A stretch of DNA of 64,000 nucleotides, from NCBI GenBank assembly GCA_934476075.1, contig CAKSNH010000013.1:1-64000 (forward strand), written 5' to 3'. Every line of letters starts with the position of its first letter. The stretch's first letter is position 1. The notes beneath the pieces are model-generated. The model was not told the DNA's origin. It searched no databases and worked only from the letters and a program-made list of their open reading frames with translations. The translations under genes were made by a program, and so were the position numbers. This DNA comes from an uncultured Clostridia bacterium (GTDB lineage: Bacteria > Bacillota > Clostridia > UBA1381). Positions 9,672 through 59,858 of the stretch are shown one piece after another.

Positions 9672-9755
9672 ACAAAAATCCCTCCGTGATAAGTTTTTAT
9701 GATTTTTTATCCGTTTTCGTATTTTTTACAACGAACGTTTGCCGCTACCTGCATT

Positions 9756-9858
9756 TTTTAATTTGTAGGAAATTGCGTAAAACGCAATGACGAAAAATCA
9801 AAAATGCTACCTTAGTCCTCCGCCCGCAGGCGGTGCTTCTATCAGAAGCTTTTTTATA
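9756..9858 (+). repeat. Intergenic repeat family 1, copy 1 (~100 bp, ends in a terminator-like double hairpin).
   Basis: TTAATTTGTAGGAAATTGCGTAAAACGCAATGACGAAAAATCAAAAATGCTACCTTAGTCCTCCGCCCGCAGGCGGTGCTTCTATCAGAAGCTTTTTTAT. Confidence 0.8.
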
Positions 9859-10286
9859 CTTTTCCCCTACTTTTTCCCCTACTTTTTCAAAAAAAACTTA
9901 AATATTTTGAAATTTATCCTATACTTTTGGCAAAAAGTATGGGGACAAAAAGATATGTTTATGTATAATGTAAATATGTAAAAACAACAATTTGCAACAC
10001 CGGAAAGAGTCGTCTGCAAAAAACAAAGATAAAGGGCATCTTTTTATGTATGTGCTTTAACATATTGTAAAGTATATTATAGTTTCTTATAAAAAGACGC
10101 ATTCCTTTTTAGCAGACATACTCTATTCAAGTATATTACACTTTTGACATTTTGTCAATGGCTTGCGGATTTTGAAGTTCCCTATTTTTTGGCAGCATCC
10201 AAAACCTATATCAGGAAACAAGGATAATTTGCATACATTTGTGAAAGAAACGGGTTTATAAGCTTTTCGGAGAGGAGGCGAGGCAT

Positions 10287-10670: not shown

Positions 10671-10941
10671 ACCGTTAAGAAAAGATGTTTTGGAGTATTT
10701 CGGTTTTGGTACTAAAAATATGAAAAGGCTTAAAATCTGCCGGTGCTGCGGAAATGTACAGACTGCAAAAAACAAGTTTTGCAAAGCTTGTCAGACAAAA
10801 CTGCCGGAGGAAACAGTTTTTGATATTTACAAAGCAAAGCATCGTTGTTGCACCAAATGCGAAAATGTTCTCCCTAATGATGCGGAGTATTGTCCCATTT
10901 GTGGAACAAAGCAAAACAATAAAGAAAGAGAGGCGATATGA
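10639..10941 (+). CDS. Small double zinc-ribbon protein (~100 aa).
   Basis: CRCCGNV...CKACQTK and CTKCENV...CPICGTK. Its start overlaps the stop of the upstream gene, and its stop overlaps the ATG of the downstream giant gene (ATGA). Confidence 0.5.
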   Translation: MEELMTVTRYRPLRKDVLEYFGFGTKNMKRLKICRCCGNVQTAKNKFCKACQTKLPEETVFDIYKAKHRCCTKCENVLPNDAEYCPICGTKQNNKEREAI

Positions 10942-13900
10942 ATATGAAGAAGTTTTTATCACTGTGTATGGTATTTATTATGTTGATGACGTTTTTGCCG
11001 TTTACGGCATTTGCGGACTATTCCGACGGTCAGAACTGCGGAAGCTGCGGGCACTACCACTGGGACAGCTATTGCTGCGGAAACTGCGGCCGCTGTACGG
11101 AGGATTGCAGAAGCGACTGTTTTGAAATCACTCATTGCCAAAGCTGCGGAGAATGTTTTGCCGATATGAGCGAAAACGAATACTGCACCGAATGCTGGAA
11201 TTGTATAGAATGCGGCGAAAACGAGCACTGCAAATATTGCGGAGAGTGCGGCAGGGATATTTGCAGCGACTGTCATATCTGCGAAGACTGCCGACAGACG
11301 AACGGCGCTATCTGCCAGTACTGCGATGCCTGTCTGACTTGTCTTTACGGCGAGGGAGAACTTGATGAGGAGGATATGTGCAAGACCTGTCGTGCAACTC
11401 TTGCCTGCTGTCTGTCTATCGTTTGCCAGGAATGTCTGTCCTCCTGCAATCAATGTAAATCCATAGACGAATTCTGCACAAGTTGCGAAAGGTGCGTAGA
11501 CTGTGTCACGGATAATATCATCTGCATGGAATGTGGCAAGTGTAAGGACTGCTGGGGGGGAGACCACTGTACGGAATGTAACAGCTGTGAATATGAATAC
11601 CACGGTGCCTGCGAAATGTGCGATAATTGCGCCGAAAAAGACGACAGAATCTGCGAAAGCTGCGGCAGCTGCGGTTTTTGCAGCGACTGGGAGCCAAGCG
11701 CTATTTGCCCCAACTGCAACGCTTGTCCGGAAGAATATGACAGACGCTGCGAGGACGGGGAACACTGCAATCTTTGCTGGGAGTGGATTTGTGAAAACTG
11801 TAATCAGTGCAGCCACGAAGGCAACATACTGTGTTCGGATTGCGGAGATTACTGCAGCTCGTGTGAAAATTTCTGCTACGACTGTGAGAAATGCGAGGAA
11901 TGTTGCCGTAATACCAGCGAAGAAAACGGCTGCTATCACGGTATATGCGTGGAAAGCAGTGACTGGGACGATTATTCTCACCGCTGTCAATCCTGCGGAA
12001 ATTGCTTTGAGGAAGATGAGATGTGCGACGATTGCAGTCTTTGCGCAGAGTGCTGTCTTAACGAAAGCCAAGGGAATGGCTGTGAGCACGGCATATGCGT
12101 TGAAAGTGCAGACTGGGATGCAGAGGGTCACCGTTGCAGCAGCTGCGGTGAATGTTTTGAAGAAAACGAATTCTGCCCCGACTGCGGATACTGTCTGGAT
12201 TGCTGTTTGAACAATGCCGACTTTGCCGGATGCGTCCACGGTGTCTGCATTGAGAGTAATGAATGGCTAAATCATTTTTGCGACCTGCATGATGGCTGTG
12301 TGGAGGTTTTGTGTGACACCTGCGGCGGCTGTGCCGGCTGCTGCGATAAAATGCGTGCACAGGAAAATTGTACGCACACGCACGTTTGCCCGGGCTCATC
12401 GGGCTGGAGCAAGCATTTCTGCAAAACGTGCAATAAGTGCTTTGCACCTGACGAGATGTGCCAATACTGCGGCAAGTGCCTTGTCTGCTGCAAGTCGGCA
12501 ACGCCTTGCTCCTGCGGCAATGATATATGTCCGAGCGACCCGAAATGGCTCGACCATTATTGCACATCGCACGAAACCTGTTTCTCGAAATGTGCTCACG
12601 GTGCACATACGCATACGCCGGGAAGCACCTATGTGCAGGAGGACGCCAACAGGCATTATCAGACCTGTACCATTTGCGGTATAGCGATGAACCGAAACAG
12701 ACACAGATTAGGAGAAGGGGTTCGTGAAAACTTTTCCGAAGTTTTTGGAAAGCCTACCGCAATCATGCGTTTTACCTGCCTTGACTGCGGATACTCTGAG
12801 AGAAAGATGAGCTCGGTTTCGTCTGCCTGCGTAAACGGAACGTGCGAAGGCAGTGAAGTACTGGCTTATGACACAACGCATCATTGGAGGCAATGCAGCC
12901 TTTGCGGTGACGTAAAAGTCAGCACAAAAACAACGCACGATTTCTCGAAGAACCCCTATGCCTGCGGCGCTTTGAACTGTTATTATAAGAAAATTACCGC
13001 ACCGGCAATAGATACGGTCGGAGGCAAAGAACTTGAATGGGACTATGTTACCTATGTTGACGGCAAAGAAAAATATTACGCTGCGGACGAATTTACGGCG
13101 ATATTCGGTGAAAAACTGGTAATTCCGTATACGCTGTTAAGCGGCGAAAACGTAAAAATGTCGATTATCGACCCCGAAACGGGGATAAAGATAAATCCAC
13201 AACAGAGCACGCCATTTTGGAATATGTATGCCCAGCAACTGGTAACCTATACCAAAGACAGCGTTGTTTTGGATTTACAGGAGCCGCAGTGCCAACGTCT
13301 GTTTAAACACTTGTACGGTCAGTGCGGCAGATATGAATTTATCCTGCGTGCACATAACGAGCTTGGAGATTATGAGGCATACTACAACAGCAACGTGCGG
13401 TTCTTTATCAACCTGCCGCACGAAACGGATGAGTGGCAGATGAATGAAACGCAACACTGGAAGATTTGCTCCAATTCTGATTGCCCCGACGGCGGCAAGC
13501 GTGTGAATATCGGTGCACATGACTGGCGCCACGGCGATTCCTGCGTTGCTTGCGGAAAAATCCGTCCCGTGCGTATCACCTGGCAGACAACCGACCCGAA
13601 GCCGACTTACCGTCACGGACGTGATGACGAAAACTTCGTTAAACTCTCAGTCAAGGCACGAGGCAATAATCTTACTTATCAGTGGTACGGTGCTTATTAC
13701 GATTCTAACGGAGATGTTAAGATATTTAATATCAGTGACATAACGGACGACCCCGTAAACGGTCATGCGGGAACAAAAACCGATACGCTGACCGTTGGAC
13801 TGTATGACGCAATGTGCGGCGAGGTTTTGCAATATGAGGATGAATTTATGTATGTCTGCGTTGTTACCGGCGACGGCGGTACTGTGCAGTCCAAGCCGAT

Positions 13901-14891
13901 TCGCATTACTCCTCAGCACGACACCTCGTCTTACGAATACAGAAATAATTCGATATATACAAACAATCAGACAGACCAACATATGGTAATATGCAAAAAC
14001 TGCCACGAAGAATTTTATATGAAGCCGCACACACCTGGGTATTGGAAAACCACCAAGGAACCTACGGTTGACGATGAGGGCGAGCAGACCTATTACTGTG
14101 CTGACTGTGGCTTAACCAGGCAAAAACAGAAAATTCCCAAACTTGCCGCACCGCATACGCACAACTTCACTGTGGTGGCACATGACGGCATTGCACACTG
14201 GAATACCTGCTCCGATGAAGCTTGCGGACGCTCCGATAACTCCTATGTTCGCCATACATACAGCGACTGGGTGACCGTTACGGCACCAACAATATCTGCG
14301 TCCGGTATTAAGAAACGCATCTGCACGCAAGCCGGCTGCTGGAACGAACAAACCGCACCGATAGCACCGCTGACTCACACCTGCTCCTTTGTCAACAGCT
14401 CATATGTGTATGACGAAACAAGTCACTGGCTGGAATGTGAGAGTTCGGACTGTTCCGAAAAGCTCCGCGTGATACCGCACCGTTATAATCAGATGGTATT
14501 TCCTAAGAAACCTACTCTGACAGAGGAAGGAATCGGTCATCATAGCTGTGCCGTATGCCTTTACGAAGAGGACGTAACGCTTCAGAAGATTACCGAAGAA
14601 CCCGTCTTGCAGCTGTTTGAAAAAAACGGTGAATATTGCATACACGCTTCCAACGGCGGAATTTCTGCCTATGTTTGGATAGCAAGCTATAAAAACGGGC
14701 AGATGATTGATGTGAAAAGAGAAGTTATCCGCCAAATAGATATGCCGGTACTTGACGCTTCTGTCGACACCCTTGAACTGAATATTTTGGAGGCGGATGA
14801 GATTAGGGCGTTTATGTTCAGCTATGATAAGCAGATAAAGCCTCTTTTGCCTGCGGCAAGACTGAAAATAACAATTACAGAGGACATTTGA
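10938..14891 (+). CDS. Giant secreted, extremely cysteine-rich repeat protein (1317 aa). The N-terminal ~530 aa are a dense array of CxxC/CxC knuckles. The C-terminal ~790 aa contain repeated HxW-C...C modules interspersed with beta-rich segments.
   Basis: Signal peptide MNMKKFLSLCMVFIMLMTFLPFTAFA. Roughly one residue in four to five is Cys across the first ~100 mature residues (e.g. NCGSCGHYHWDSYCCGNCGRCTEDCRSDCFEITHCQSCGECF...). There are three consecutive ~45-aa modules GC[YEV]HG[IV]C[VI]ES.DW...C.[SD]CG.CFEE.E.C.DC..C..CC. Translationally coupled to two zinc-ribbon genes. Confidence 0.7.
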   Translation: MNMKKFLSLCMVFIMLMTFLPFTAFADYSDGQNCGSCGHYHWDSYCCGNCGRCTEDCRSDCFEITHCQSCGECFADMSENEYCTECWNCIECGENEHCKYCGECGRDICSDCHICEDCRQTNGAICQYCDACLTCLYGEGELDEEDMCKTCRATLACCLSIVCQECLSSCNQCKSIDEFCTSCERCVDCVTDNIICMECGKCKDCWGGDHCTECNSCEYEYHGACEMCDNCAEKDDRICESCGSCGFCSDWEPSAICPNCNACPEEYDRRCEDGEHCNLCWEWICENCNQCSHEGNILCSDCGDYCSSCENFCYDCEKCEECCRNTSEENGCYHGICVESSDWDDYSHRCQSCGNCFEEDEMCDDCSLCAECCLNESQGNGCEHGICVESADWDAEGHRCSSCGECFEENEFCPDCGYCLDCCLNNADFAGCVHGVCIESNEWLNHFCDLHDGCVEVLCDTCGGCAGCCDKMRAQENCTHTHVCPGSSGWSKHFCKTCNKCFAPDEMCQYCGKCLVCCKSATPCSCGNDICPSDPKWLDHYCTSHETCFSKCAHGAHTHTPGSTYVQEDANRHYQTCTICGIAMNRNRHRLGEGVRENFSEVFGKPTAIMRFTCLDCGYSERKMSSVSSACVNGTCEGSEVLAYDTTHHWRQCSLCGDVKVSTKTTHDFSKNPYACGALNCYYKKITAPAIDTVGGKELEWDYVTYVDGKEKYYAADEFTAIFGEKLVIPYTLLSGENVKMSIIDPETGIKINPQQSTPFWNMYAQQLVTYTKDSVVLDLQEPQCQRLFKHLYGQCGRYEFILRAHNELGDYEAYYNSNVRFFINLPHETDEWQMNETQHWKICSNSDCPDGGKRVNIGAHDWRHGDSCVACGKIRPVRITWQTTDPKPTYRHGRDDENFVKLSVKARGNNLTYQWYGAYYDSNGDVKIFNISDITDDPVNGHAGTKTDTLTVGLYDAMCGEVLQYEDEFMYVCVVTGDGGTVQSKPIRITPQHDTSSYEYRNNSIYTNNQTDQHMVICKNCHEEFYMKPHTPGYWKTTKEPTVDDEGEQTYYCADCGLTRQKQKIPKLAAPHTHNFTVVAHDGIAHWNTCSDEACGRSDNSYVRHTYSDWVTVTAPTISASGIKKRICTQAGCWNEQTAPIAPLTHTCSFVNSSYVYDETSHWLECESSDCSEKLRVIPHRYNQMVFPKKPTLTEEGIGHHSCAVCLYEEDVTLQKITEEPVLQLFEKNGEYCIHASNGGISAYVWIASYKNGQMIDVKREVIRQIDMPVLDASVDTLELNILEADEIRAFMFSYDKQIKPLLPAARLKITITEDI

Positions 14892-18027: not shown

Positions 18028-19212
18028 GTGAAAAAACTATCATTATTGCTTGCAATATTGCTGATTTTAAACGTCACTGTTGTCTGTGCGGAATGGGAAA
18101 CATTCAAATCGGCGGACGGTATGTATGAATACACAAATGATGGAGTAATTACCGCTTATTACGGTGATGAATTTGCCTTTTTTCCGGAAGAAATAGACGG
18201 AACAAAAATCAATGAAATCGGCGTTATGGCTTGTTTTGACTTAGGAATTAAATTCATATCCTTTGCCGAAGGAATTGAATTGATAAACACAAATGCTTTT
18301 GAAGGCTGCAATGCCGAAAGTGCATATATTCCGTCAAGTGTGAAAAATATTGGTGAGCGTGCTTTTGCAAACTGTGCAAATCTTAATGAGGTTACATTGA
18401 ATTCAGAGGAAATAACATTTGATTTTGATGTGTTTATCGGAACCGGATTTATAAAGTTTTATATCCCGTGCACGGCAGATAAGGATGTGATGTACGAAAA
18501 AATATTCAATGCAAAGGGTGATGGGAATTTTAGTTTTTCACTTATGCACACTGCGATTGTTGAAAGTATGACGGAAAAGGATATTTTCGGTGAGAACATG
18601 ATATACTGCGAGAACTGCGGTTTTAAAGGAAGTAGATATTTGGAGGATACATCTCTGCCGTTTGCGGACGTATCGCAGGACGCATGGTACTATTCTTATG
18701 TACAGATGGCGTACAGCTTCGGCATCATAAACGGGAAAAATGAAATGGAATTTGACCCGAATGCAGGGCTTACCTGTGCGGAGGCAGCCAAAATTGCCGC
18801 AGTAATTCACAATAAAAGCCAATACGAAAGAGAGGAAGTTGAATTCCAAATGACCGGTGAAAACTGGTATGATGTTTATGTGGATTATTGCTATGACAAT
18901 GCAATAATTGAAGATTATATCATCTTTGATTGGGAGAAAAACGCAACGCGTGCACAGATGGCATATCTGTTTTCAAGGTGCGACGTCAATCCGTATTTTA
19001 TAAACGATGTCCCGATAACCGATATTCCGGACGTTTATGACACAACGCCCTTCGCATATGAAATTTTGGATCTTTACAATAAGGGAGTCGCAGTGGGAGG
19101 CAATGAATACATGGCATTTTATCCGGATTCACAGGTTAAACGGAGCGAAGCAGCAGCACTGATTTCGAGAATTCTTTGCTATGATATGAGAATTGAATTG
19201 CCGAAAGGGTGA
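18028..19212 (+). CDS. Cell-surface protein with BspA-type leucine-rich repeats and C-terminal SLH-like repeats.
   Basis: Signal peptide. LRR_5-type units (INTNAFEGCNAESAYIPSSVKNIGERAFANCANLNEVTL). SLH-like segments (FADVSQDAWYYSYVQMAYSFGIINGKNEMEFDP; FINDVPITDIPDVYDTTPFAYEILDLYNKGVAVG). The start is alternatively the GTG at 18019. Confidence 0.6.
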   Translation: MKKLSLLLAILLILNVTVVCAEWETFKSADGMYEYTNDGVITAYYGDEFAFFPEEIDGTKINEIGVMACFDLGIKFISFAEGIELINTNAFEGCNAESAYIPSSVKNIGERAFANCANLNEVTLNSEEITFDFDVFIGTGFIKFYIPCTADKDVMYEKIFNAKGDGNFSFSLMHTAIVESMTEKDIFGENMIYCENCGFKGSRYLEDTSLPFADVSQDAWYYSYVQMAYSFGIINGKNEMEFDPNAGLTCAEAAKIAAVIHNKSQYEREEVEFQMTGENWYDVYVDYCYDNAIIEDYIIFDWEKNATRAQMAYLFSRCDVNPYFINDVPITDIPDVYDTTPFAYEILDLYNKGVAVGGNEYMAFYPDSQVKRSEAAALISRILCYDMRIELPKG

Positions 19213-37527: not shown

Positions 37528-37616
37528 GTAAAGGTAAATAAATCATAATTTAATATACCCCAAAAAAACAAACAGGATATACGAATAAATATAATGTATT
37601 TATAAGGAATGGTAAA

Positions 37617-38300
37617 ATGAATATAAACGAGTATGTGTCAGAGATAAAGGACGACAATACAAAAATAGATGTATTCATTGAAGAATACAAACCGTTCATT
37701 ATGGGTGTGGTTTCAAGAAAACTGGGCGGTTTTTTTGAATATGGCGTGGACGAGGAACTGAGTGTGGCACTCGGTGCGTTTTTGGAGGCGATAAACGGCT
37801 TCGACCAAAACAAAGGAAATTTCCTATCCTTTGCGTCTACCGTCATTCACAGACGCTTGATTGATTTTCTGCGGCGGAAAAAACATAATGAACTGTCCAT
37901 AGAGGACTGCGAGGAGAATAACCCCGCTTTGCTTGGTAAAAGCTCCGTTGAGTCGTACAATCAGAGTGAGTATGAAGAAAATCTGCGTATTGAACTTGAA
38001 ATGTTCCGCCGTGAATTGTCCGTGTTCGGAATAAGCATGGAAAAGCTGGTTAAAGCGTCACCAAAGCAGAAAGGAACACGAAAACTGTATAATACAGTTG
38101 TTTCGTACATAACCCAAAATGAAGAAATTTTAACCCAGATTTTGCAAAAAGGCTATATGCCCGTTACGGCAGTGAGCGAGAATTTGGGTATTAACCGCAA
38201 GAAAATAGAACGTGGACGTGATTATATTATTGCGTGCGTGATTATTCAGCATGGAGATTATGTGTATATGAAAGAATATATTAAGTGGGAGGTGATATAA
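37617..38300 (+). CDS. sigI: SigI-family RNA polymerase sigma factor.
   Basis: Sigma-70 region 2 plus the SigI-type C-terminal domain. It is followed, with a 1-nt overlap, by an RsgI_N-containing anti-sigma factor. Confidence 0.7.
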   Translation: MNINEYVSEIKDDNTKIDVFIEEYKPFIMGVVSRKLGGFFEYGVDEELSVALGAFLEAINGFDQNKGNFLSFASTVIHRRLIDFLRRKKHNELSIEDCEENNPALLGKSSVESYNQSEYEENLRIELEMFRRELSVFGISMEKLVKASPKQKGTRKLYNTVVSYITQNEEILTQILQKGYMPVTAVSENLGINRKKIERGRDYIIACVIIQHGDYVYMKEYIKWEVI

Positions 38301-40459
38301 TGAAGGGCAGAATAATAGAAATCAATAACGGATATGCAATAGTAATCACCAAAAACGGTGAGTTTGTGAAAACAAGAAATTACAAAAAAGCGTCTGTGGG
38401 CGATGAAATAACCGTATGCACAGGATTTGCGGGATATACAAAAGCAATAGCGGCGGCTGCGGCTATGGTGGCGGTATTTTGCGGTACGGCGGTGTCATAT
38501 TGTATGCCCACGAGTTATGTCGATATATGTATAAACCCCGAAATTGAACTCAAACTTAATATGTATGACATTGTTATCGGTGCGGAAGGGAAAAATGATG
38601 ACGGTGCTGCGGTGCTCGGCAGGGAAAATGTGAAAAATGTAAAGCTGAAAAACGCACTTGACGATATAATCGAGAATGCACAGAGTTTAGGATTTATTCC
38701 CGAAAATGAGGAAAAGACGGTTGTATTGTCGGTGTTTGCGAAAAATGAGGGTACGGCAAAAAGCCTGTATGAAAGCGTTAAGGCTTATGAAGTGCCGGAG
38801 AGAATTAACAAGGTAGTGAAAATTGCAAGCAGTGACGATGTTACAAATGCAAATGCGGAGAATTTGTCCGTGGGCAAATATTTGCTTGTGAACGAGGTTG
38901 CGGACGCTGTGCCCGAAATGTCAAAAGAGGAATGGAAAAATCATTCGGTTAAAGAGATTATAACAACGCTTGACAAGGTAAAGGACAACAGCGTAACAAC
39001 AACATCTGCACAGGCGGAAAATCCGCAGAATACAGTCGGCGGAACGGAAAACGTTATCGAAAATAAGCCGAAAATCAGTCCGAAACCCGAAACGGGTACG
39101 GCGGAACGTCCGACAACCTTTACAGAGCGTAAAACTGAGGATATTCCAAAACCGCAGACTATAAAAGCTGACGAGAGAAATACGCAAAAGCCGACTGAAA
39201 CAAGGTTTGGTGTGCCTGTCGGGGATATTGCTCCGAAAGAGGAAAAGAAACCTGTGATATTTGCCGACAGCGAGCCTATGCCAAACCACGATGGCGGCAA
39301 TGCAGAGCCGAATGACGAGCCTAAACCGCCGGAGATTGAAAGCCGAGATAATGAACCGCCGTCAAACAACAGTGAGTTTGAGAAACCGCCGATAACAAGC
39401 GGTGACGATTTTGGCGAAAACAATATTTTTGATGACGGCAGAAAAGACGATAACAATAATGTGCTTGATAATGAGCCTGTAAATGGCGATGGGGATATGA
39501 CACTTCAAAACGGCGATAAGACTCATTCGGGCGGCGGTGCAAAAGCAGATAGTAACAAGTCAAATATTGACAATCGACCGAATGAGAACCCGAACGGCGG
39601 ATTTGGTGACAGACAAGACGAGCCGAGCAACAAAGATTTTGACAGTCGACCGAATGAGAACCCGAACGGCGGATTTGGTGACAGACAAGACGAGCCGAGC
39701 AACAAAGATTTTGACAGTCGACCGAATGAGAACCCAAACGGTGGGTTTGGTGACAGGAAAGACGAGCCGAGCGACAAGGATTTTGGCAATCGACCGAATG
39801 AGAACCCAAACGGTGGGTTTGGTGACAGGCAAGACGAGCCGAGCGACAAAGATTTTGGCAATCGACCGAATGACAATCCAAACGGTGGGTTTGGTGACAG
39901 GCAAGACACACCGCCGGACAGGGATTTTGGCAATCGACCGAATGAGAACCCAAACGGTGGGTTTGATAACAGGCAAGACGAGCCGAGCGATAAGGATTTT
40001 GGCAATCGACCGAATGAGAACCCAAACGGTGGGTTTGATAACAGGCAAGACGAGCCGAGCGATAAGGATTTTAACAGTCAACTGAATGAGAACCCAAACG
40101 GCGGATTTGGTGACAGACAAGACGAGCCGAGCGACAAGGATTTTGACAACCGACCGAATGAGAATCCAAACGGTGGGTTTGGTGACAGGCAAGACGAGCC
40201 GAGCGACAAGGATTTTGACAATCGACCGAATGAGAATCCAAACGGTGGGTTTGATGACAGGCAAGACACACCGCCGGACAGGGATTTTGATGACAGAACG
40301 TATTTTGATATGCCAAGCTTTGACGGCGGACATGATGAGATGCCGTCAGAATGGGATTTTGGCGACAGCGGATTTGACGGAGAATGGAATGATGCTCCCG
40401 ACGACAATCCTCCGCCGGAGCATGAAAACGGTTTTAATGACGGGCCGTTTGGCGAATAA
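38300..40459 (+). CDS. rsgI: RsgI-family anti-sigma-I factor with a single TM helix and a long extracytoplasmic repeat domain of low complexity.
   Basis: RsgI N-terminal domain (MKGRIIEINNGYAIVITKNGEFVKT...GDEITV). TM helix AIAAAAAMVAVFCGTAV. Then ~10 tandem 24-aa units RPNENPNGGFGDRQDEPSDKDFDN. Confidence 0.7.
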   Translation: MKGRIIEINNGYAIVITKNGEFVKTRNYKKASVGDEITVCTGFAGYTKAIAAAAAMVAVFCGTAVSYCMPTSYVDICINPEIELKLNMYDIVIGAEGKNDDGAAVLGRENVKNVKLKNALDDIIENAQSLGFIPENEEKTVVLSVFAKNEGTAKSLYESVKAYEVPERINKVVKIASSDDVTNANAENLSVGKYLLVNEVADAVPEMSKEEWKNHSVKEIITTLDKVKDNSVTTTSAQAENPQNTVGGTENVIENKPKISPKPETGTAERPTTFTERKTEDIPKPQTIKADERNTQKPTETRFGVPVGDIAPKEEKKPVIFADSEPMPNHDGGNAEPNDEPKPPEIESRDNEPPSNNSEFEKPPITSGDDFGENNIFDDGRKDDNNNVLDNEPVNGDGDMTLQNGDKTHSGGGAKADSNKSNIDNRPNENPNGGFGDRQDEPSNKDFDSRPNENPNGGFGDRQDEPSNKDFDSRPNENPNGGFGDRKDEPSDKDFGNRPNENPNGGFGDRQDEPSDKDFGNRPNDNPNGGFGDRQDTPPDRDFGNRPNENPNGGFDNRQDEPSDKDFGNRPNENPNGGFDNRQDEPSDKDFNSQLNENPNGGFGDRQDEPSDKDFDNRPNENPNGGFGDRQDEPSDKDFDNRPNENPNGGFDDRQDTPPDRDFDDRTYFDMPSFDGGHDEMPSEWDFGDSGFDGEWNDAPDDNPPPEHENGFNDGPFGE
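39575..40295 (+). repeat. Tandem array of about 10 copies of a 72-bp unit inside rsgI.
   Basis: The unit cgaccgaatgagaacccaaacggtgggtttggtgacaggcaagacgagccgagcgacaaggattttgacaat recurs with a few substitutions per copy. It is in frame and encodes the 24-aa repeats. Confidence 0.85.
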
Positions 40460-40465
40460 CTGAAT

Positions 40466-40514
40466 AAAGCCTCAAAGGTCAAACCGAAAATCTGACCTTT
40501 GAGGCTTTTGTTTT
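40466..40514. terminator. Bidirectional intrinsic terminator between rsgI (+) and the Ca/Na exchanger gene (-).
   Basis: AAAGCCTCAAAGGTCA-loop-TGACCTTTGAGGCTTT flanked by T/A runs. Confidence 0.7.
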
Positions 40515-40521
40515 GAGAAAA

Positions 40522-41487
40522 TTATCTCAATATGATATATGCCGAATAGGCTATATAGGTAATCAGCATGGAAATTGCAAACGGTTTTGTAGTCTTTTTG
40601 GTTTTGATGAACACAAGATACATTGCGATACTTATGACAGTTAGAATAATTGTGTCATATATAGCAAGCATATCAACATTTATCGGGTGGATTGCCGCCG
40701 AAACACCAAGCACAAAGAACACGTTAAAAATGTTTGAGCCGAGCACGTTGCCGAGTGCAATATCACTCTCATTCTTTTTCAGAGCAACAACAGATGTGAC
40801 AAGCTCCGGAAGTGATGTGCCTATTGCAATGATGGTTAAGCCTATCAGCGTTTCGCTGACGTGGAGTGTCAGTGCAATGGATTGGGCGGACATTACCGTA
40901 AGCTTGCCGCCGATTGAAATTCCCGCAATTCCAAGCAGCGAGAAAAGTATGTACATAGGAACGGATTTTAGCTTTTCATCGGGTTCTTCATCGGCAAGAG
41001 ATGCTTTGTACTTTAATGCACTTCTTACGTTGAATATTATAAAAAGTACAAAAAATGCAAGAAAGATTATGCCGTCAATATGTGATAATGTAAGTGTTGA
41101 GTTTCTTTTGTATATGCGGTCAAAAGCCAGCATAAACATCAGGACGGCGGATAATATGGCAAGCGGAAAATCACGCTTTAAGACGGATTTATCAACGGCT
41201 ATCGAGCCTACCAATGCAGATATACCCGTTACCATAAGCAAGTTGAAAATATTCGAGCCGATAACGTTGCTCACGGCAATCTCATTGCTGCCTGCCAGTG
41301 CTGCGGCGATACTTACCGCTGCTTCGGGCAGACTTGTGCCGAATGCAACTACGGTAAGACCTATTACTATTGACGGTATTTTAAGTTTTTTGGCGATACC
41401 CGACGCACCGTCAACAAATACGTCCGCACCTTTGATAAGCAGGAAAAATCCCACTATAAGCAAAAGTATGTCCAGTAAAGTTTTCAT
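40522..41487 (-). CDS. CaCA-family Na+/Ca2+ (K+-dependent type) exchanger, YrbG-like.
   Basis: Two alpha-repeat halves (GTSLPE...; second GTSLPELVTS). The start is MKTLLDILLL at 41487, with RBS AAAGGAGAA. Confidence 0.8.
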   Translation of the reverse strand: MKTLLDILLLIVGFFLLIKGADVFVDGASGIAKKLKIPSIVIGLTVVAFGTSLPEAAVSIAAALAGSNEIAVSNVIGSNIFNLLMVTGISALVGSIAVDKSVLKRDFPLAILSAVLMFMLAFDRIYKRNSTLTLSHIDGIIFLAFFVLFIIFNVRSALKYKASLADEEPDEKLKSVPMYILFSLLGIAGISIGGKLTVMSAQSIALTLHVSETLIGLTIIAIGTSLPELVTSVVALKKNESDIALGNVLGSNIFNVFFVLGVSAAIHPINVDMLAIYDTIILTVISIAMYLVFIKTKKTTKPFAISMLITYIAYSAYIILR

Positions 41488-41520
41488 ATAAATTTTCTCC
41501 TTTTGTATTTGGGGGCAGTC

Positions 41521-41625
41521 ATAAAAAAGCTTCTGATAGAAGCACCGCCTGCGGGCGGAGGAATAATGTAGCATTTTTGATTTTTCGTCATTGCGTTTTA
41601 CGCAATTTCCTACAAATTAAAAAAA
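41521..41625 (-). repeat. Intergenic repeat family 1, copy 2 (inverted orientation).
   Basis: The reverse complement matches copy 1 over ~100 nt with a few substitutions. It lies between the Ca/Na exchanger gene and yebC. Confidence 0.8.
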
Positions 41626-42545: not shown

Positions 42546-43441
<896 letters not shown>

Positions 43442-43732
43442 TTTAAAAATCTCCTTATCGATAAGCATTTTAAAACACAAGCAACAGTGTGTTATAAAAC
43501 AGCTTTTTTAATTTTCCGCCCGAAAGCGGTATCTTGTATTAACATATTATTATGCAATGTAAGATATTATATCACAAACTGCGAAAGATTACAATACATA
43601 ATTAACGATATACGGCAGTTTTTTTGTAGGATAAAAAGGAGAGGGGGATGGGAATAGTATAAATTATAATTTATCTAAATCATACCCAAAAATCACCAAT
43701 AAAAAAATTATTCCGTTTTTATAAACAATTAA

Positions 43733-43761: not shown

Positions 43762-43895
43762 TATTAAAAGGCAAATTTGGCAAATAAAATCAAAGTAACG
43801 GTATGTGCCGATAAAAAATACAATATAAGGAGGGGATTCATTTACAAAAATGAGTGCATACCTGTGAAATGACAAAAAGAAAGAGGGGAATAAAA

Positions 43896-45092
43896 ATGAT
43901 AAAGAAAATATTAAGTTTTTTTGTGACAGTATGTATATTGTGCACGGTTTTCCCGTGTGCGGTTTTTGCGATTGACGAAAGCGGTGAGATTGACGCCGCA
44001 AGAAAGGCTATCAGAAAGAGTGAAAGTACGCTTACAGCGTATAATGATATGCCAATGGAAGCATTTATAAGCCTTGTAAAGACAGTTATTCCGGCAGACA
44101 GCAGTGTGGAGCTCTCTTTTGAGAAAGAATCTGATTACCGTATATACAACGCAACGAGCGAAAAAGACGGTTCGATTTTTGCAAATATCCGGTTCACCTG
44201 CGGGCCTTACACAAGACACGATATGTATACCATTAAAATACCGGCACTTACCGGTGCGGCGGCTGAAAACAATCAGGACGCTGAAAATGTGGCAAAGGAT
44301 ATTGCAGAGGCAAGGGAAATTTTCAAGAGCGTTTCACTTGACCCGAACGTTACGCCGGACGATATTTTAAACTCGATAAGAGCGGTTATCACACACGGCA
44401 GTACGGTAACGCTTGACGGCGAATTTACAAAGGTAGATTCTACCGCAAAGAAAAAAGGCTCGGTAAAATGTTTTGTTAAATTTACAATCAACAGTGCGTC
44501 TGATACATTGAAGGTGTACAATACACTTAAATTGCTTGGCGACAATTCAGCCAACATACCTACAACTCCGGCAGCACCGGCAGGATTTACAGACGTGGCA
44601 GACGATGCATACTATGCAGATGCGGTTAAATGGGCGGTTGAAAAGAATATCACTCAGGGTACAAGCGATACAACTTTCTCTCCTGACGAAACCTGTACAA
44701 GAGCACAAATTCTGACATTCCTATGGCGTGCGGTAGGCTCGCCGAAAACAGGTGACGCAAATCCTTTTGCAGACGTAACGGCAAACGATTATTACTATGA
44801 CGCAGCTATTTGGGCGGCTAAGATGGGTATGGTTTCTGGCGACAGATTTAACGGCGATACCCCTTGCACAAGAGCACTTACCGTTACATATCTATGGCAG
44901 AATGACGGTGCGGAAGAATACGAGGATTTGGGCGTATTTGATGATGTTGACGCTAATGCGAGTTATTGTGCGGCGGTATCATGGGCAGTTGAAAACGGCG
45001 TTACAAGCGGTGTGTCCGATACGGAATTTGCACCTAATGAAATTTGTTCGAGAGGTCAGATTGTGACTTTCCTGAAAAGAGCATTGGGCTGA
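43896..45092 (+). CDS. S-layer-homology (SLH) domain cell-wall-anchored protein.
   Basis: Signal peptide FFVTVCILCTVFPCAVFA. Three C-terminal SLH repeats (FTDVADDAYYADAVKWAVEKNITQG; FADVTANDYYYDAAIWAAKMGMVSG; FDDVDANASYCAAVSWAVENGVTSG). Confidence 0.7.
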   Translation: MIKKILSFFVTVCILCTVFPCAVFAIDESGEIDAARKAIRKSESTLTAYNDMPMEAFISLVKTVIPADSSVELSFEKESDYRIYNATSEKDGSIFANIRFTCGPYTRHDMYTIKIPALTGAAAENNQDAENVAKDIAEAREIFKSVSLDPNVTPDDILNSIRAVITHGSTVTLDGEFTKVDSTAKKKGSVKCFVKFTINSASDTLKVYNTLKLLGDNSANIPTTPAAPAGFTDVADDAYYADAVKWAVEKNITQGTSDTTFSPDETCTRAQILTFLWRAVGSPKTGDANPFADVTANDYYYDAAIWAAKMGMVSGDRFNGDTPCTRALTVTYLWQNDGAEEYEDLGVFDDVDANASYCAAVSWAVENGVTSGVSDTEFAPNEICSRGQIVTFLKRALG

Positions 45093-45174
45093 TTTGGTTT
45101 AAATAGTTAAATTGATGTGACTCCAAAAAGTTAGACTTTTTATAGCGTGGTAGTTTTAATGACTGCTACGCTAT

Positions 45175-45276
45175 TTTTAATTTGTAGGAAATTGCGTAAC
45201 ACGCAATGACGAAAAATCAAAAATGCTACCATAGTCCTCCGCCCGCAGGCGGTGCTTCTATCAGAAGCTTTTTTAT
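45175..45276 (+). repeat. Intergenic repeat family 1, copy 3.
   Basis: Near-identical to copy 1 (TTTAATTTGTAGGAAATTGCGTAACACGCAATGACGAAAAATCAAAAATGCTACCATAGTCCTCCGCCCGCAGGCGGTGCTTCTATCAGAAGCTTTTTTATG). Confidence 0.8.
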
Positions 45277-45336
45277 GCGTAAATTTTTAAAACATGATAG
45301 TAAATGATAGTTTTTTATGCGTTAAAATTAAGGTAC

Positions 45337-57816: not shown

Positions 57817-57868
57817 ATAACCTCACGAAACAGGACGAAAGCAGAGATTTCTATGTTTCCTAACTTAA
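57817..57868 (+). repeat. Intergenic repeat family 2, copy C (5' part only; points into the 3' end of the histidine kinase gene on the opposite strand).
   Basis: GAATAACCTCACGAAACAGGACGAAAGCAGAGATTTCTATGTTTCC. Confidence 0.65.
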
Positions 57869-59139
57869 ATGTTAATATTTACTATATGAACAAATTCGTT
57901 ATCTTTAAGGACATGATAGTCATTTCCGTTATACTTGTCAGAAATACTTTTAATAATTTTCATACCCAGTCCGTGAAGCTTTTTGTCGGATTTATCTGTA
58001 TTGGGGTTATAGCTTGTACAGAAATTACGGCAGTCAAACACCAAATAGCAGTTTTTCCTGTAAATATTAAAGGTAATATATTTGTTGGCTGTTTCTTTTT
58101 CGCAATTTTCTATGGCATTGTCGAGCAGGTTTGAAATAATGCTGCATAAGTCCATGTCCGAAACGGATATATTGCTGATATTGACGGAGTTGATTTGAAT
58201 GTCGATATGACATTTTTGAGCATATTGCAGTTTGTTATATAATACCGCATCAGCAGCGGCATTGCTGCAAAAAGTGATGTTATTGGTCTTTTGTATGCTC
58301 TCGGTTAATTCGCTGATATATTTTGACAGTTCATCATTGGAATTGGTAAGATATAATGATTGAATTGTTTGCAGATGGTTTTTAAAATCATGTTGCAGTT
58401 TGCGAATATCCGTATACTTTTGTTTTAAATCTTCATAGTGCTGCTGTTGGAGCATTGTTTGATGTTCAATAAATGCACTTTCGGCGGCTCGTTTCCTTTG
58501 CAGTTTTGTGTGCTTATAAAGAAAGAAGAATGCGATAATACTAAATGTAAATGTGGTCACAGCAAGTGCTATAAAAGGTATATTTTTGTATTTATATATA
58601 TACAATGCGATAAAATATAAATTTACGCCGAGTATAAACAGGAATATGGAAATTGCTACGGTAAGATATTCCATGTTAAGCGATGAACTATCGGTATACT
58701 TGTGCACAAGCATTACAGTTAAACCGCATAATATAGCCATAACGCTGTATATCAGTATAACAGAAAGAATTGTGTAGATAGGGAAGTCCATAATGTCGGC
58801 ATAATTCATATGGAACACATATATCCCCATAAGACCGACAAATATTTCGCCGATAAATCCGTACAGACAATATGATACAACGGCGAGGAGTTTATGAGAT
58901 ATTTTTGCTTTATAAAAATAATTATAAATCAGAAATTGTACAACAAGAAAAGTGGGAAGTTTTATCATAAAATATTTGCTTATCGGCAAAAATATTATTT
59001 TTACGATTACTCTTGTTATGAAAAGCAGAATTGTGTTTTTGCGTACATCATCGGTTTTGTACGGAAATAATTTCATTCCGTATACAATTTGCAAAACCTC
59101 GTCTATCAAATAGCCGAGTGTGATATAAATATTTAACAT
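57865..59139 (-). CDS. Sensor histidine kinase of the AgrC/VirS/ComD type (HPK10, GHKL ATPase) with a 6-7 TM sensor domain.
   Basis: Polytopic N-terminus, H-box KLQHDFKNHLQTI, ATPase motifs SNLLDNAIEN ... GLGMKI. Confidence 0.75.
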   Translation of the reverse strand: MLNIYITLGYLIDEVLQIVYGMKLFPYKTDDVRKNTILLFITRVIVKIIFLPISKYFMIKLPTFLVVQFLIYNYFYKAKISHKLLAVVSYCLYGFIGEIFVGLMGIYVFHMNYADIMDFPIYTILSVILIYSVMAILCGLTVMLVHKYTDSSSLNMEYLTVAISIFLFILGVNLYFIALYIYKYKNIPFIALAVTTFTFSIIAFFFLYKHTKLQRKRAAESAFIEHQTMLQQQHYEDLKQKYTDIRKLQHDFKNHLQTIQSLYLTNSNDELSKYISELTESIQKTNNITFCSNAAADAVLYNKLQYAQKCHIDIQINSVNISNISVSDMDLCSIISNLLDNAIENCEKETANKYITFNIYRKNCYLVFDCRNFCTSYNPNTDKSDKKLHGLGMKIIKSISDKYNGNDYHVLKDNEFVHIVNINI

Positions 59140-59858
59140 AATATGTCCCCCAGATAAAGCGTAAATAAATTATTTATATGAGCCAGATAGCGTTTGCTGA
59201 TTGGAATTTGTGTGTGGTTTTCCAGAAATACGGTTTGTTTTTCGATTTTAAAAATTTTAGTAAGATTAACTATATAGCTTTGGTGACAGCGTGCAAAAAT
59301 ATCCGTGTCAAGCTGTTTTTCGAGTTCGGACAGTTTCAGTGAGTGCAGCAGCTGAGTTCCGTTTGAAAATGCAGCTGTAATATTATGTGCAGAGCTTTCA
59401 AAGTAGAATATATCATCAAAATTAAGTCTTATTATAGATTTTTTTGTTTTTATGCAAAGTGAAGTATTTCTGATTTTATCGGCAGCTTTTAAAGCCTTTT
59501 CAAGTGCATTGTTAAAATGGTGTTCGTTAAACGGTTTTTTCAGAAAATATACATGTTCGGTTTCATAGACGTTTTCGTAATAATCGGAATACCCCGACAT
59601 AAATATTATTATAATGTTTGGATATTTATTGTGCAGCTCCTTAACAATGTCAATGCCGTTTTCGTGGCTGTTTTCAAGCACAATATCCATAAAAATTATA
59701 TATACATCATGATTATTGCAATTTGAAAATAATTCGTACAGTGCATTTCTGTTTTCTGCCGTAAATATATCATGGCTGACCGTACAATGTTTATTAATCA
59801 GATTTTTTAAATATCGAGTATGTTCTTTAATATCATCGCAAACAATAAAATTAATCAT
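59133..59858 (-). CDS. LytTR-family response regulator (AgrA/VirR-like). Overlaps the downstream kinase gene by 7 nt.
   Basis: REC domain (MINFIVCDD...) and LytTR DNA-binding domain (FARCHQSYIVNLTKI...). Confidence 0.8.
   Translation of the reverse strand: MINFIVCDDIKEHTRYLKNLINKHCTVSHDIFTAENRNALYELFSNCNNHDVYIIFMDIVLENSHENGIDIVKELHNKYPNIIIIFMSGYSDYYENVYETEHVYFLKKPFNEHHFNNALEKALKAADKIRNTSLCIKTKKSIIRLNFDDIFYFESSAHNITAAFSNGTQLLHSLKLSELEKQLDTDIFARCHQSYIVNLTKIFKIEKQTVFLENHTQIPISKRYLAHINNLFTLYLGDILC

Follow-up and report, generated by a model that had tools for sequence, protein, structure and literature searches.

The 64-kb window analyzed here covers positions 1 to 64,000 of contig CAKSNH010000013.1 (assembly GCA_934476075.1), which derives from an uncultured human-gut Clostridia bacterium. 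At 37617-40459 it carries sigI and rsgI, coding for the sigma factor SigI and its anti-sigma factor RsgI, and the long C-terminal tail of this RsgI contains ten near-identical acidic units of 24 amino acids (aa) arranged in tandem. An earlier reading of the DNA letters (the original prediction) had proposed this pair and array and had speculated on a calcium-responsive switch. We consider it reasonably probable that the pair is an envelope-sensing switch of the type described in Bacillus subtilis, whose RsgI has an intrinsically disordered region (IDR) as its C-terminal part.

The first gene, sigI (37617-38300, plus strand), encodes a SigI sigma factor of 227 aa. Its product passes the curated cutoff of the TIGR02895 (spore_sigI) model with 199.5 bits against 185 and covers this model completely (1-219/219). 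Sigma70_r2 matched at aa 21-89, and the domain-model scan gave no match to Sigma70_r4 in the SigI protein. The second gene, rsgI (38300-40459, plus strand), encodes a protein of 719 aa that matches RsgI_N and RsgI_M and is identical to a database protein (P0006). The proposed SigI/RsgI pair is thus borne out by TIGR02895, RsgI_N and RsgI_M. The stop codon of sigI and the start codon of rsgI share one base (TAATG), and the genes are translationally coupled. The rsgI start was placed at ATG 38300 and not at GTG 38285, as given by the open reading frame (ORF) finder, because of the position of the Shine-Dalgarno sequence GGGAGGTG at 38287-38294, the TAATG overlap, and database homologues that begin with MKGRIIE; GTG 38285 sits inside the Shine-Dalgarno region. 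All RsgI residue numbers are counted from ATG 38300.

A candidate autoregulatory SigI-type promoter is located 5' of sigI at 37557-37586 (plus strand) and consists of ACCCC with an A7 tract, followed by TACGAAT. According to the published definition (PMC10575876), a SigI promoter has an A-tract in its -35 region and CGWA in its -10 region, and the corresponding pattern CCCCAAAA-N12-20-CGWA matched only once in the window, namely at this candidate. Since the pattern scan found no further SigI-type promoter in the window, the SigI regulon is not definable from it. A hairpin-like inverted repeat with a T-run lies downstream of glnA and is followed by the promoter string ACCCC-AAAAAAA-N-TACGAAT. 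The blocks T-TACCC(C/T)AAAAAA and TACGAAT were found unchanged 5' of sigI in a divergent strain (L003, GCA_964309295.1) as well as in the orthologous loci L006 and L007, whose proteins are about 60% identical. Because these blocks are conserved while the adjoining bases diverge, motif-level evidence supports autoregulation of sigI-rsgI from a conserved SigI-type candidate promoter. In L003 a NUDIX gene, a heparinase-like gene and a GH88 gene are located upstream of sigI in place of glnA. Comparison of L003:5255-5320 with 37530-37619 of the window showed that the similarity begins ~25 nt 5' of the ACCCC block. Thus, the promoter-sigI-rsgI unit has been kept intact across this break in synteny.

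RsgI begins with the cytoplasmic sigma-binding domain RsgI_N (38303-38413, plus strand, aa 2-38; PF12791, E-value 7.9e-10), the model of which resembles RsgI1-N of Clostridium (Acetivibrio) thermocellum (6ivs) in Foldseek. A single Ala-rich transmembrane (TM) helix, AIAAAAAMVAVF, follows at 38435-38503 (plus strand, aa ~46-68). The top Kyte-Doolittle window covers aa 50-68, and AlphaFold2 (AF2) models a helix at aa 48-61. Residues A51, A53 and A54 of this helix are unchanged in the homologue alignment. Once RseP has cleaved, XAA sites in RsgI TM helices have been described to act as degrons for ClpXP (PMC12203970).

Between the TM helix and the disordered tail lies the juxtamembrane autoproteolytic domain RsgI_M/SEAL (38513-38992, plus strand, aa 72-231; PF23750, E-value 1e-19). 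The original prediction had correctly named RsgI_N, the TM helix and a stalk but had missed this domain. The predicted local distance difference test score (pLDDT) of the AF2 model reaches ~70-86 over most of it, and Foldseek found B. subtilis RsgI (8t9n) with a template modeling score of 0.76 and C. thermocellum RsgI2 (8hdj) with 0.80. Autocleavage is predicted between N79 and P80 (38534-38539, plus strand) in the hairpin ICINPEIEL, which fits the (D/C)(I/V)NP(S/E) hairpin of the family; N79-P80 is unchanged in the five aligned homologues. Among the PDB entries matched by sequence, four C. thermocellum RsgI domains have a C-terminal-fragment chain (e.g. 8u9o_B, 8heq_B and 8hdj_B) that starts exactly at query residue 80. 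N/P autocleavage has been mapped by experiment in homologues (bioRxiv 10.1101/2023.06.27.546760). By its sequence features, then, the protein is an RsgI anti-sigma-I factor with RsgI_N, one TM helix and a SEAL domain with N/P site, co-operonic with sigI.

Beyond the SEAL domain, RsgI continues in a tail of 488 aa (aa 232-719) with a net charge of -67 and a pI of 4.2, which can be divided into three parts. The proximal disordered stalk (38993-39574, plus strand, aa 232-425) is rich in N, P, E, D, T and K and has a net charge of -19 over aa 229-425. It is followed by the ten acidic units (39575-40294, plus strand, aa 426-665; net charge -33, 8% Phe) and by a degenerate acidic F/G/D-rich C-terminal tail (40295-40456, plus strand, aa 666-719; net charge -15). 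The disordered region as a whole consists of 15% D, 14% N, 12% P, 11% G and 9% E, which is the enrichment in charged and polar residues of the Bacillus class.

Direct parsing of the array resulted in ten in-frame units of 72 bp or 24 aa, in agreement with the about ten near-identical acidic units of the original prediction. Tandem Repeats Finder (TRF) reported a period of 72 with 9.7 copies, 91% matches and a score of 1080, and a further row with a period of 216 bp reaches into the C-terminal tail, to 40361. No other tandem repeat with a TRF score of at least 80 was found in the window. The units have the consensus rpNeNPNGGFgdRqDePsdkDFdn, in which 12 positions do not vary among the ten units, and the array is composed of 19% D, 17% N, 13% P, 13% G, 9% R and 8% F. 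Units share 74-100% identity at the DNA level, units 1 and 2 being identical. Summed over all pairs of units, the proportions of synonymous (pS) and nonsynonymous (pN) differences were 0.311 and 0.089, i.e. pN/pS is 0.29. NPNGGF, R13, D15, P17 and D21-F22 are unchanged in all ten units, and four codons of the NPNGGF block show synonymous variants. Because residues stayed invariant despite such variants and pN/pS is low, the peptide sequence of the unit is constrained in a manner typical of purifying selection, as judged from units that are not independent of each other. ORFs overlapping the array in other frames and on the other strand were regarded as artefacts of the repeat; homologues and a pN/pS below 1 are confined to the rsgI frame.

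The tail is predicted to be disordered. In the AF2 model the mean pLDDT of 10-residue blocks in aa 232-719 ranged from 26 to 41, nearly all values being below 50, and no secondary structure was predicted. Within this model the stalk has pLDDT 26-37, and the array plus C-terminal tail modeled alone gave a pLDDT of 47 with a predicted template modeling score (pTM) of 0.12, again with no secondary structure in either case. On the Uversky plot the tail, including the stalk, is classed as disordered. For aa 229-719 no Pfam family was found even at E<=10, and Foldseek matched only the N-domain and the SEAL domain, with no match for the tail. A recognizable C-terminal CBM3, PA14 or glycoside hydrolase (GH)-like sensor was found neither by Pfam (E<=10) nor by AF2 or Foldseek. 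Negative AF2 results, both for the full protein and for the isolated array, led us to reject a folded solenoid or beta-roll. In view of the G-F and G-W dipeptides, repeats of the cell-wall-binding type (CW_binding_1) and GW modules were also considered, but had no Pfam support.

The number of units differs between assemblies. The protein cluster at 90% identity contained seven distinct sequences of 719, 695, 695, 671, 671, 551 and 521 aa, corresponding to 10, 9, 9, 8, 8, 3 and 2 units, and every variant is in frame. Six loci with 3 to 10 units were mapped, and their flanks showed 0 mismatches over 4.7 kb; the 2-unit form belongs to the more divergent strain L003. All ten units are present in L002 (MEGAHIT k141). 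Of the two SPAdes assemblies with 9 units, L001 lacks one of the identical units 1/2 and L095 lacks unit 6. The remaining loci come from k141 assemblies: L096 (8 units) lacks one of units 1/2 as well as unit 6, L097 (8 units) lacks units 6 and 9, and in L094 (3 units) an 8-like unit, 9 and 10 remain. This matches the copy-number variation foreseen in the original prediction. The pattern fits slipped-strand or unequal recombination; since units are lost beside their most similar neighbor, collapse of the repeat would look alike, all sources being short-read metagenome assemblies (SPAdes, MEGAHIT).

Expansion of the array during assembly, which the original prediction had raised as a possible artefact, is unlikely. 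The 10-copy array with identical protein was present on 3 contigs, one of them from a k141 assembly by MEGAHIT, and the longest exact repeat inside the array is 90 bp, the remaining ones being at most 46 bp. Because of this length the 10-copy form should be resolvable at k=141, and ten units are a credible minimum number in the strain of the window.

The closest homologues of this RsgI are P0002-P0004, with about 60% identity in the N-terminal part, and P0005 with about 29%. RsgI_N, TM helix and SEAL domain are common to all of them and are followed by long acidic D/N/G/F-rich tails without a Pfam domain. No folded C-terminal domain was found in P0002-P0005 or L007; homologues with a conventional folded C-terminus, the second objection foreseen in the original prediction, were therefore not encountered among these five. 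A scan of one genome per species yielded 80 loci, mostly from Lachnospiraceae, Oscillospiraceae and other Clostridia metagenome-assembled genomes, 37 of which encode proteins of at least 300 aa. Their tails were read by eye, without a Pfam scan. All 37 appeared low-complexity and charged or polar, L023, L030 and L043 having in addition a short structured-looking stretch, and a module resembling a carbohydrate-binding module (CBM) was seen by eye in none of the 37.

The same low-complexity appearance was noted by eye for all 42 tails of at least 60 aa, drawn from ~86 Clostridia relatives. Tandem repeats are frequent in such tails. From the 42 relatives' tails of at least 60 aa analyzed with TRF (39 from L007-L086, plus L004-L006), 22 contained tandem repeats with an in-frame period. 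The best of these were a repeat of 27 aa x 2.7 in L007, truncated where the contig ends (score 413), and one of 10 aa x 6.9 in L037 (score 300; KPSETPGQDN, 7 to 10 times). With its score of 1080 the array of the window is the largest among the RsgI tail repeats surveyed. Tandem duplication seems to be a general route of RsgI tail evolution in Clostridia, as far as the compared sequences indicate.

Comparison with the orthologues also provided hints to the origin of the unit. The motif [PNG][NQGP]GGF[GEN]x(1-6)R occurs in six orthologues, starting 8-14 residues before the C-terminus: ...PQGGFEPRR in P0002, ...ENGGFEPSVRGDWR in P0003, ...PNGGFGNRSPFDR in P0004, ...GNGGFGGDNR in both P0005 and L021, and ...GPGGFNGGRQ in L014. 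The orthologues' tails are otherwise divergent, and the only Phe of the P0005 IDR is located inside this motif. Because the core of the window's unit, PNGGFGDR, matches this terminal motif, the array appears to be an ancestral terminal PNGGFGxR motif amplified ten times. L007 carries related GFGGWHAEREPSDED units, and its unit GFGGWHAEREPSDEDMRGDVPKDEPT has the G-aromatic and EPSD(E/K)D elements in common with the unit of the window. G-[F/W] adjacency was higher than in shuffled sequences of equal composition for P0004 and L007 (0/2000) and for P0003 (6/2000).

Outside this clade, an exhaustive HMMER search with the 294-aa repeat region and tail revealed no true homologue of the array. There were 25 matches to the repeat region; those inspected were unrelated periodic or low-complexity proteins and were rejected as homologues. 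These compositional matches included a protein of 6952 aa with a 24-aa period, SYGDRPDRPARP repeats and eukaryote-like FG-repeat proteins resembling nucleoporins, P0015, P0023, P0028 and P0030 being FG-repeat proteins among the weak ones. With the GFGN/FG repeats of FG nucleoporins the array shares Gly-flanked Phe at regular spacing in a polar disordered context, but this is a resemblance without homology: the tail of the window is highly acidic, bacterial and extracytoplasmic, whereas FG nucleoporins are mostly uncharged. A homologue search with the N-terminal 235 aa gave no scoring match although identical proteins exist, and the full-length search returned 5 matches only, low-complexity words having crowded the candidate list. 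A metagenome scan with the N-domain alignment found nothing. Scanning with a degenerate DNA pattern for NPNGGFGDR resulted in 7 single chance matches, mostly on environmental contigs, and no arrays. A full-text literature search for RsgI together with tandem repeat gave no relevant paper.

We assign the pair to the IDR-type, B. subtilis-like SigI/RsgI systems because RsgI_N, an Ala-rich TM helix, the SEAL domain, the N/P site, a disordered tail and a SigI-type promoter are all present. In B. subtilis (Brunet et al. 2022, PMC9732909; Brogan et al. 2023, 8t9n) the parts follow in the same order, with RsgI_N, TM helix, SEAL with N/P hairpin and disordered tail, and sigI and rsgI likewise share an operon and a SigI-type promoter. 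Differences are that about half of the tail in the window is a near-perfect array of 10 x 24 aa with the conserved PNGGFGxR core, that sequence identity of the SEAL domain to B. subtilis is only ~23%, and that the host is a gut Clostridia bacterium bearing SLH proteins. The C-terminal IDR of B. subtilis RsgI comprises 157 aa and is required for SigI activation on wall defects, and heterologous as well as scrambled IDRs are also functional there (PMC9732909). The expectation of the original prediction that RsgI proteins normally end in a folded sensor does not hold in view of this IDR and of the low-complexity tails of the relatives. The SEAL domain of B. subtilis RsgI autocleaves constitutively and the fragments stay associated (bioRxiv 10.1101/2023.06.27.546760). 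The IDR is needed for SigI activation when peptidoglycan synthesis is impaired, probably via a pulling force (PMC9732909). RasP cleaves the RsgI stub, which ClpXP removes via XAA sites of the TM helix (PMC12203970).

Our own observations concern the domains, the conservation of the cleavage site, the predicted disorder, the conserved promoter, the repeat structure and the variation between assemblies; for cleavage, force sensing, intramembrane proteolysis and the stimulus we follow the homologues. By analogy, membrane-seated RsgI would hold SigI by its N-domain, and the SEAL domain would cut itself at N79/P80 with both pieces remaining together. The disordered tail of 488 residues, comprising the P/T/N/E-rich stalk, the ten acidic units and the short acidic end, would reach into or through the wall. 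A change in the wall or in the polymer meshwork around the tail may then exert a pulling force that separates the SEAL fragments. A site-2 protease (RasP/RseP) would then cut the stub within its Ala-rich TM helix, and ClpXP would degrade the stub. The freed SigI would transcribe its target genes, among them the sigI-rsgI operon with its ACCCC-A7...CGAA promoter. For this lineage the tandem array would be a means to build and resize the IDR, and neither a folded nor a Ca2+-specific sensor.

Several points weigh against this assignment. The tail is three times as long as that of B. subtilis RsgI (488 versus ~157 aa, with a net charge of -67), and it is bipartite like the C. thermocellum RsgIs with their distal sensor. 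Bacillus RsgI IDRs are depleted in aromatic and hydrophobic and enriched in charged and polar residues (PMC9732909), and F, Y and W together account for 0-3% in most relatives' RsgI tails, whereas Phe makes up 7% of the tail of the window and 8-11% of the array and C-terminal end. G-F adjacency was observed 27 times in the tail compared to 7.7 +/- 2.6 in shuffles. The pN/pS of 0.29 together with the motif at orthologue C-termini may hint at a sequence-specific function beyond disorder. The alignment underlying the AF2 models is shallow, with 6 sequences. Finally, neither a site-2 protease gene nor a SigI target gene is visible in the window, no M50 protease gene being present among its scanned ORFs.

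An alternative explanation is, in our view, rather doubtful. It regards the array as a multivalent sensor head of short linear motifs on a wall-threading stalk, i.e. a polymer binder of low affinity but high avidity. Candidate ligands would be the secondary cell-wall polymer, the S-layer, or a dietary or host glycan contacted by Phe via CH-pi interactions; binding would supply the pull on SEAL, and the copy number would set the threshold. The invariance of NPNGGF despite synonymous changes, with the low pN/pS, agrees with such a role, but concerted evolution between non-independent units can mimic purifying selection. The PNGGF-type motif at the C-termini of P0002-P0005, L014 and L021, the related units of L007, the unusual Phe content and the excess of G-[FW] adjacency in P0004, L007 and P0003 also favor it, as do the SLH-anchored surface proteins of the organism. 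Against it, the HMMER matches were due to composition or periodicity only, so that the unit does not represent a widespread module, and the gene context indicates no ligand.

The layout of stalk plus distal module resembles that of C. thermocellum RsgI1-9 (8hdj, 8heq, 8u9o, 6ivs), which also share RsgI_N, the TM helix and the autoproteolytic domain (template modeling score up to 0.80), with a C-terminal fragment that starts at the same Pro. Their long P/T-rich linker, thought to thread the wall, has been likened here to the stalk, and their Ala-rich TM helix is, as in the window, compatible with RseP/ClpXP processing. These regulators of the cellulosome, however, end in a CBM, PA14 or GH-like sensor, whereas the RsgI of the window ends in a repeat array in which no known domain or fold was found. 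Furthermore, scrambled IDRs are functional in B. subtilis (PMC9732909). We regard as slightly more doubtful still a special form of this idea, in which a lineage-specific motif (PNGGFGxR...DF) from the ancestral C-terminus was amplified to a sequence-specific binder of wall, S-layer or gut polymers, with 2-10 copies, those from 3 to 10 in clonal backgrounds, acting as a heritable rheostat of the SigI threshold.

It is improbable that the tail becomes more compact or stiffer on binding Ca2+ or another divalent cation and thereby gates SigI in connection with the neighboring exchanger, as speculated in the original prediction. The neighbor is indeed a Ca2+/Na+ antiporter gene convergent with rsgI (40522-41487, minus strand; TIGR00367, 259 bits against a cutoff of 180), and within the species, the divergent L003 included, it has remained the neighbor of rsgI. 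It forms, however, a separate transcription unit and lies beyond a strong hairpin with U-run on the plus strand, located between both stop codons (40462-40516, the hairpin itself at 40462-40513; stem of 19-20 bp, dG -25.8 kcal/mol, z -6.7). This hairpin is likely the terminator for both convergent genes, on the antiporter side as judged from its position and an A-rich stretch upstream. Other genera have not kept this neighborhood: the exchanger is absent beside P0002, where glycosyltransferases and an SLH protein take its place, and beside P0004, where flavodoxin is found; a link to rsgI is therefore not sustained.

As a polyanion with a net charge of -67 and a pI of 4.2, the tail would by general chemistry bind divalent cations non-specifically to some degree, and NENPNG in each unit fits the relaxed pattern [DN]x[DN]x[DN]G. 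This relaxed NxNxNG string, once per unit, was the only Ca2+-type pattern matched. The strict patterns tested in the unit (PROSITE EF-hand PS00018, DxDxDG, RTX GGxGxDxUx, TSP3 DxDxDGxxDxxD and dockerin-like) gave zero matches, and in the register NENPNGGFGDRQ loop position 1 is occupied by N and not D, position 4 by Pro, position 7 by Gly and position 12 by Gln. Pfam families of Ca2+-binding proteins were not matched in the tail even at E<=10. Like the canonical Ca2+ repeats of EF-hand, RTX, TSP3 and dockerin type the unit is D/N/G-rich, periodic and extracellular, but it is devoid of their hydrophobic core positions, and neither a beta-roll or other solenoid nor a helix-loop-helix was predicted. 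The units can thus hardly be taken as Ca2+-binding loops.

Equally improbable is that the array is neutral slippage or filler, or that its copy number and variation are largely a short-read artefact: whole units lost beside their most similar neighbor in flanks with 0 mismatches (3-10 copies), the exclusive use of SPAdes and MEGAHIT short-read assemblies and the commonness of tandem repeats in RsgI tails would fit, but the 10-copy form on 3 contigs with a longest exact repeat (90 bp) below k=141, the frame that is always kept, the pN/pS of 0.29, the 2 units plus tail retained in the divergent strain and the essential role of the IDR in signaling of the B. subtilis homologue (PMC9732909) argue otherwise.

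The rest of the window mostly contains housekeeping or unrelated genes: mltG, gidB, parB, gatCAB, an asnS/aspS-type synthetase, type III glnA, yebC, rnf genes and alr. SLH-domain surface proteins are encoded at 18121-19212 and 43869-45092 (both plus strand), one of them with BspA-type leucine-rich repeats; from these two proteins it follows that the organism anchors proteins to a secondary cell-wall polymer or an S-layer. A dispersed intergenic element of ~105 nt is present in three copies (9754-9860, 41520-41623 and 45171-45277) that are ~95-98% identical and occur in both orientations, one of them between yebC and the antiporter gene. It is composed of three hairpins, the last followed by a U-run in a terminator-like manner, and no Rfam family was found at threshold for this element. 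The gene at 42620-43468 (minus strand) adjoins yebC in all contigs of the same species. It encodes a protein of 282 aa without a Pfam match, which begins with an acidic low-complexity region, contains a single TM-like segment and is rich in T, S, N, D and A towards its C-terminus. Another protein without a Pfam match, of 1317 aa and with a signal-peptide-like N-terminus, is encoded at 10938-14891 (plus strand). Its first ~560 aa are extremely Cys-rich with dozens of CxxC-type motifs, and the local GC content is 0.49 compared to ~0.41 elsewhere. A LytTR response regulator and a GHKL (SpoOB-type) histidine kinase form a pair at 57865-59858 (minus strand), within a low-GC stretch at 58-62 kb (GC content 0.32-0.33) well under the window average.

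The pair is an ordinary SigI/RsgI module, assigned here to the IDR-ended class and not to the CBM-ended cellulosome class, and the absence of a folded sensor is the norm for RsgI outside the cellulosome regulators. It differs from the described Bacillus IDRs in length, acidity, Phe content, the periodicity of 24 aa and the conserved motif core, its acidic, Phe-bearing composition being a departure from them. The length and composition needed for a functional RsgI IDR were named as an open next step by the authors of the B. subtilis study (PMC9732909). In this respect the locus provides a natural allelic series, with identical flanks around 3, 8, 9 and 10 units and a divergent strain with 2. 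Provided that these copy numbers are real, the series would allow length, charge or motif to be tested as the setter of the signaling threshold. Should the amplified motif prove to be a sequence-specific binder, it would represent a third mode of RsgI sensing beside generic IDRs and folded CBMs.

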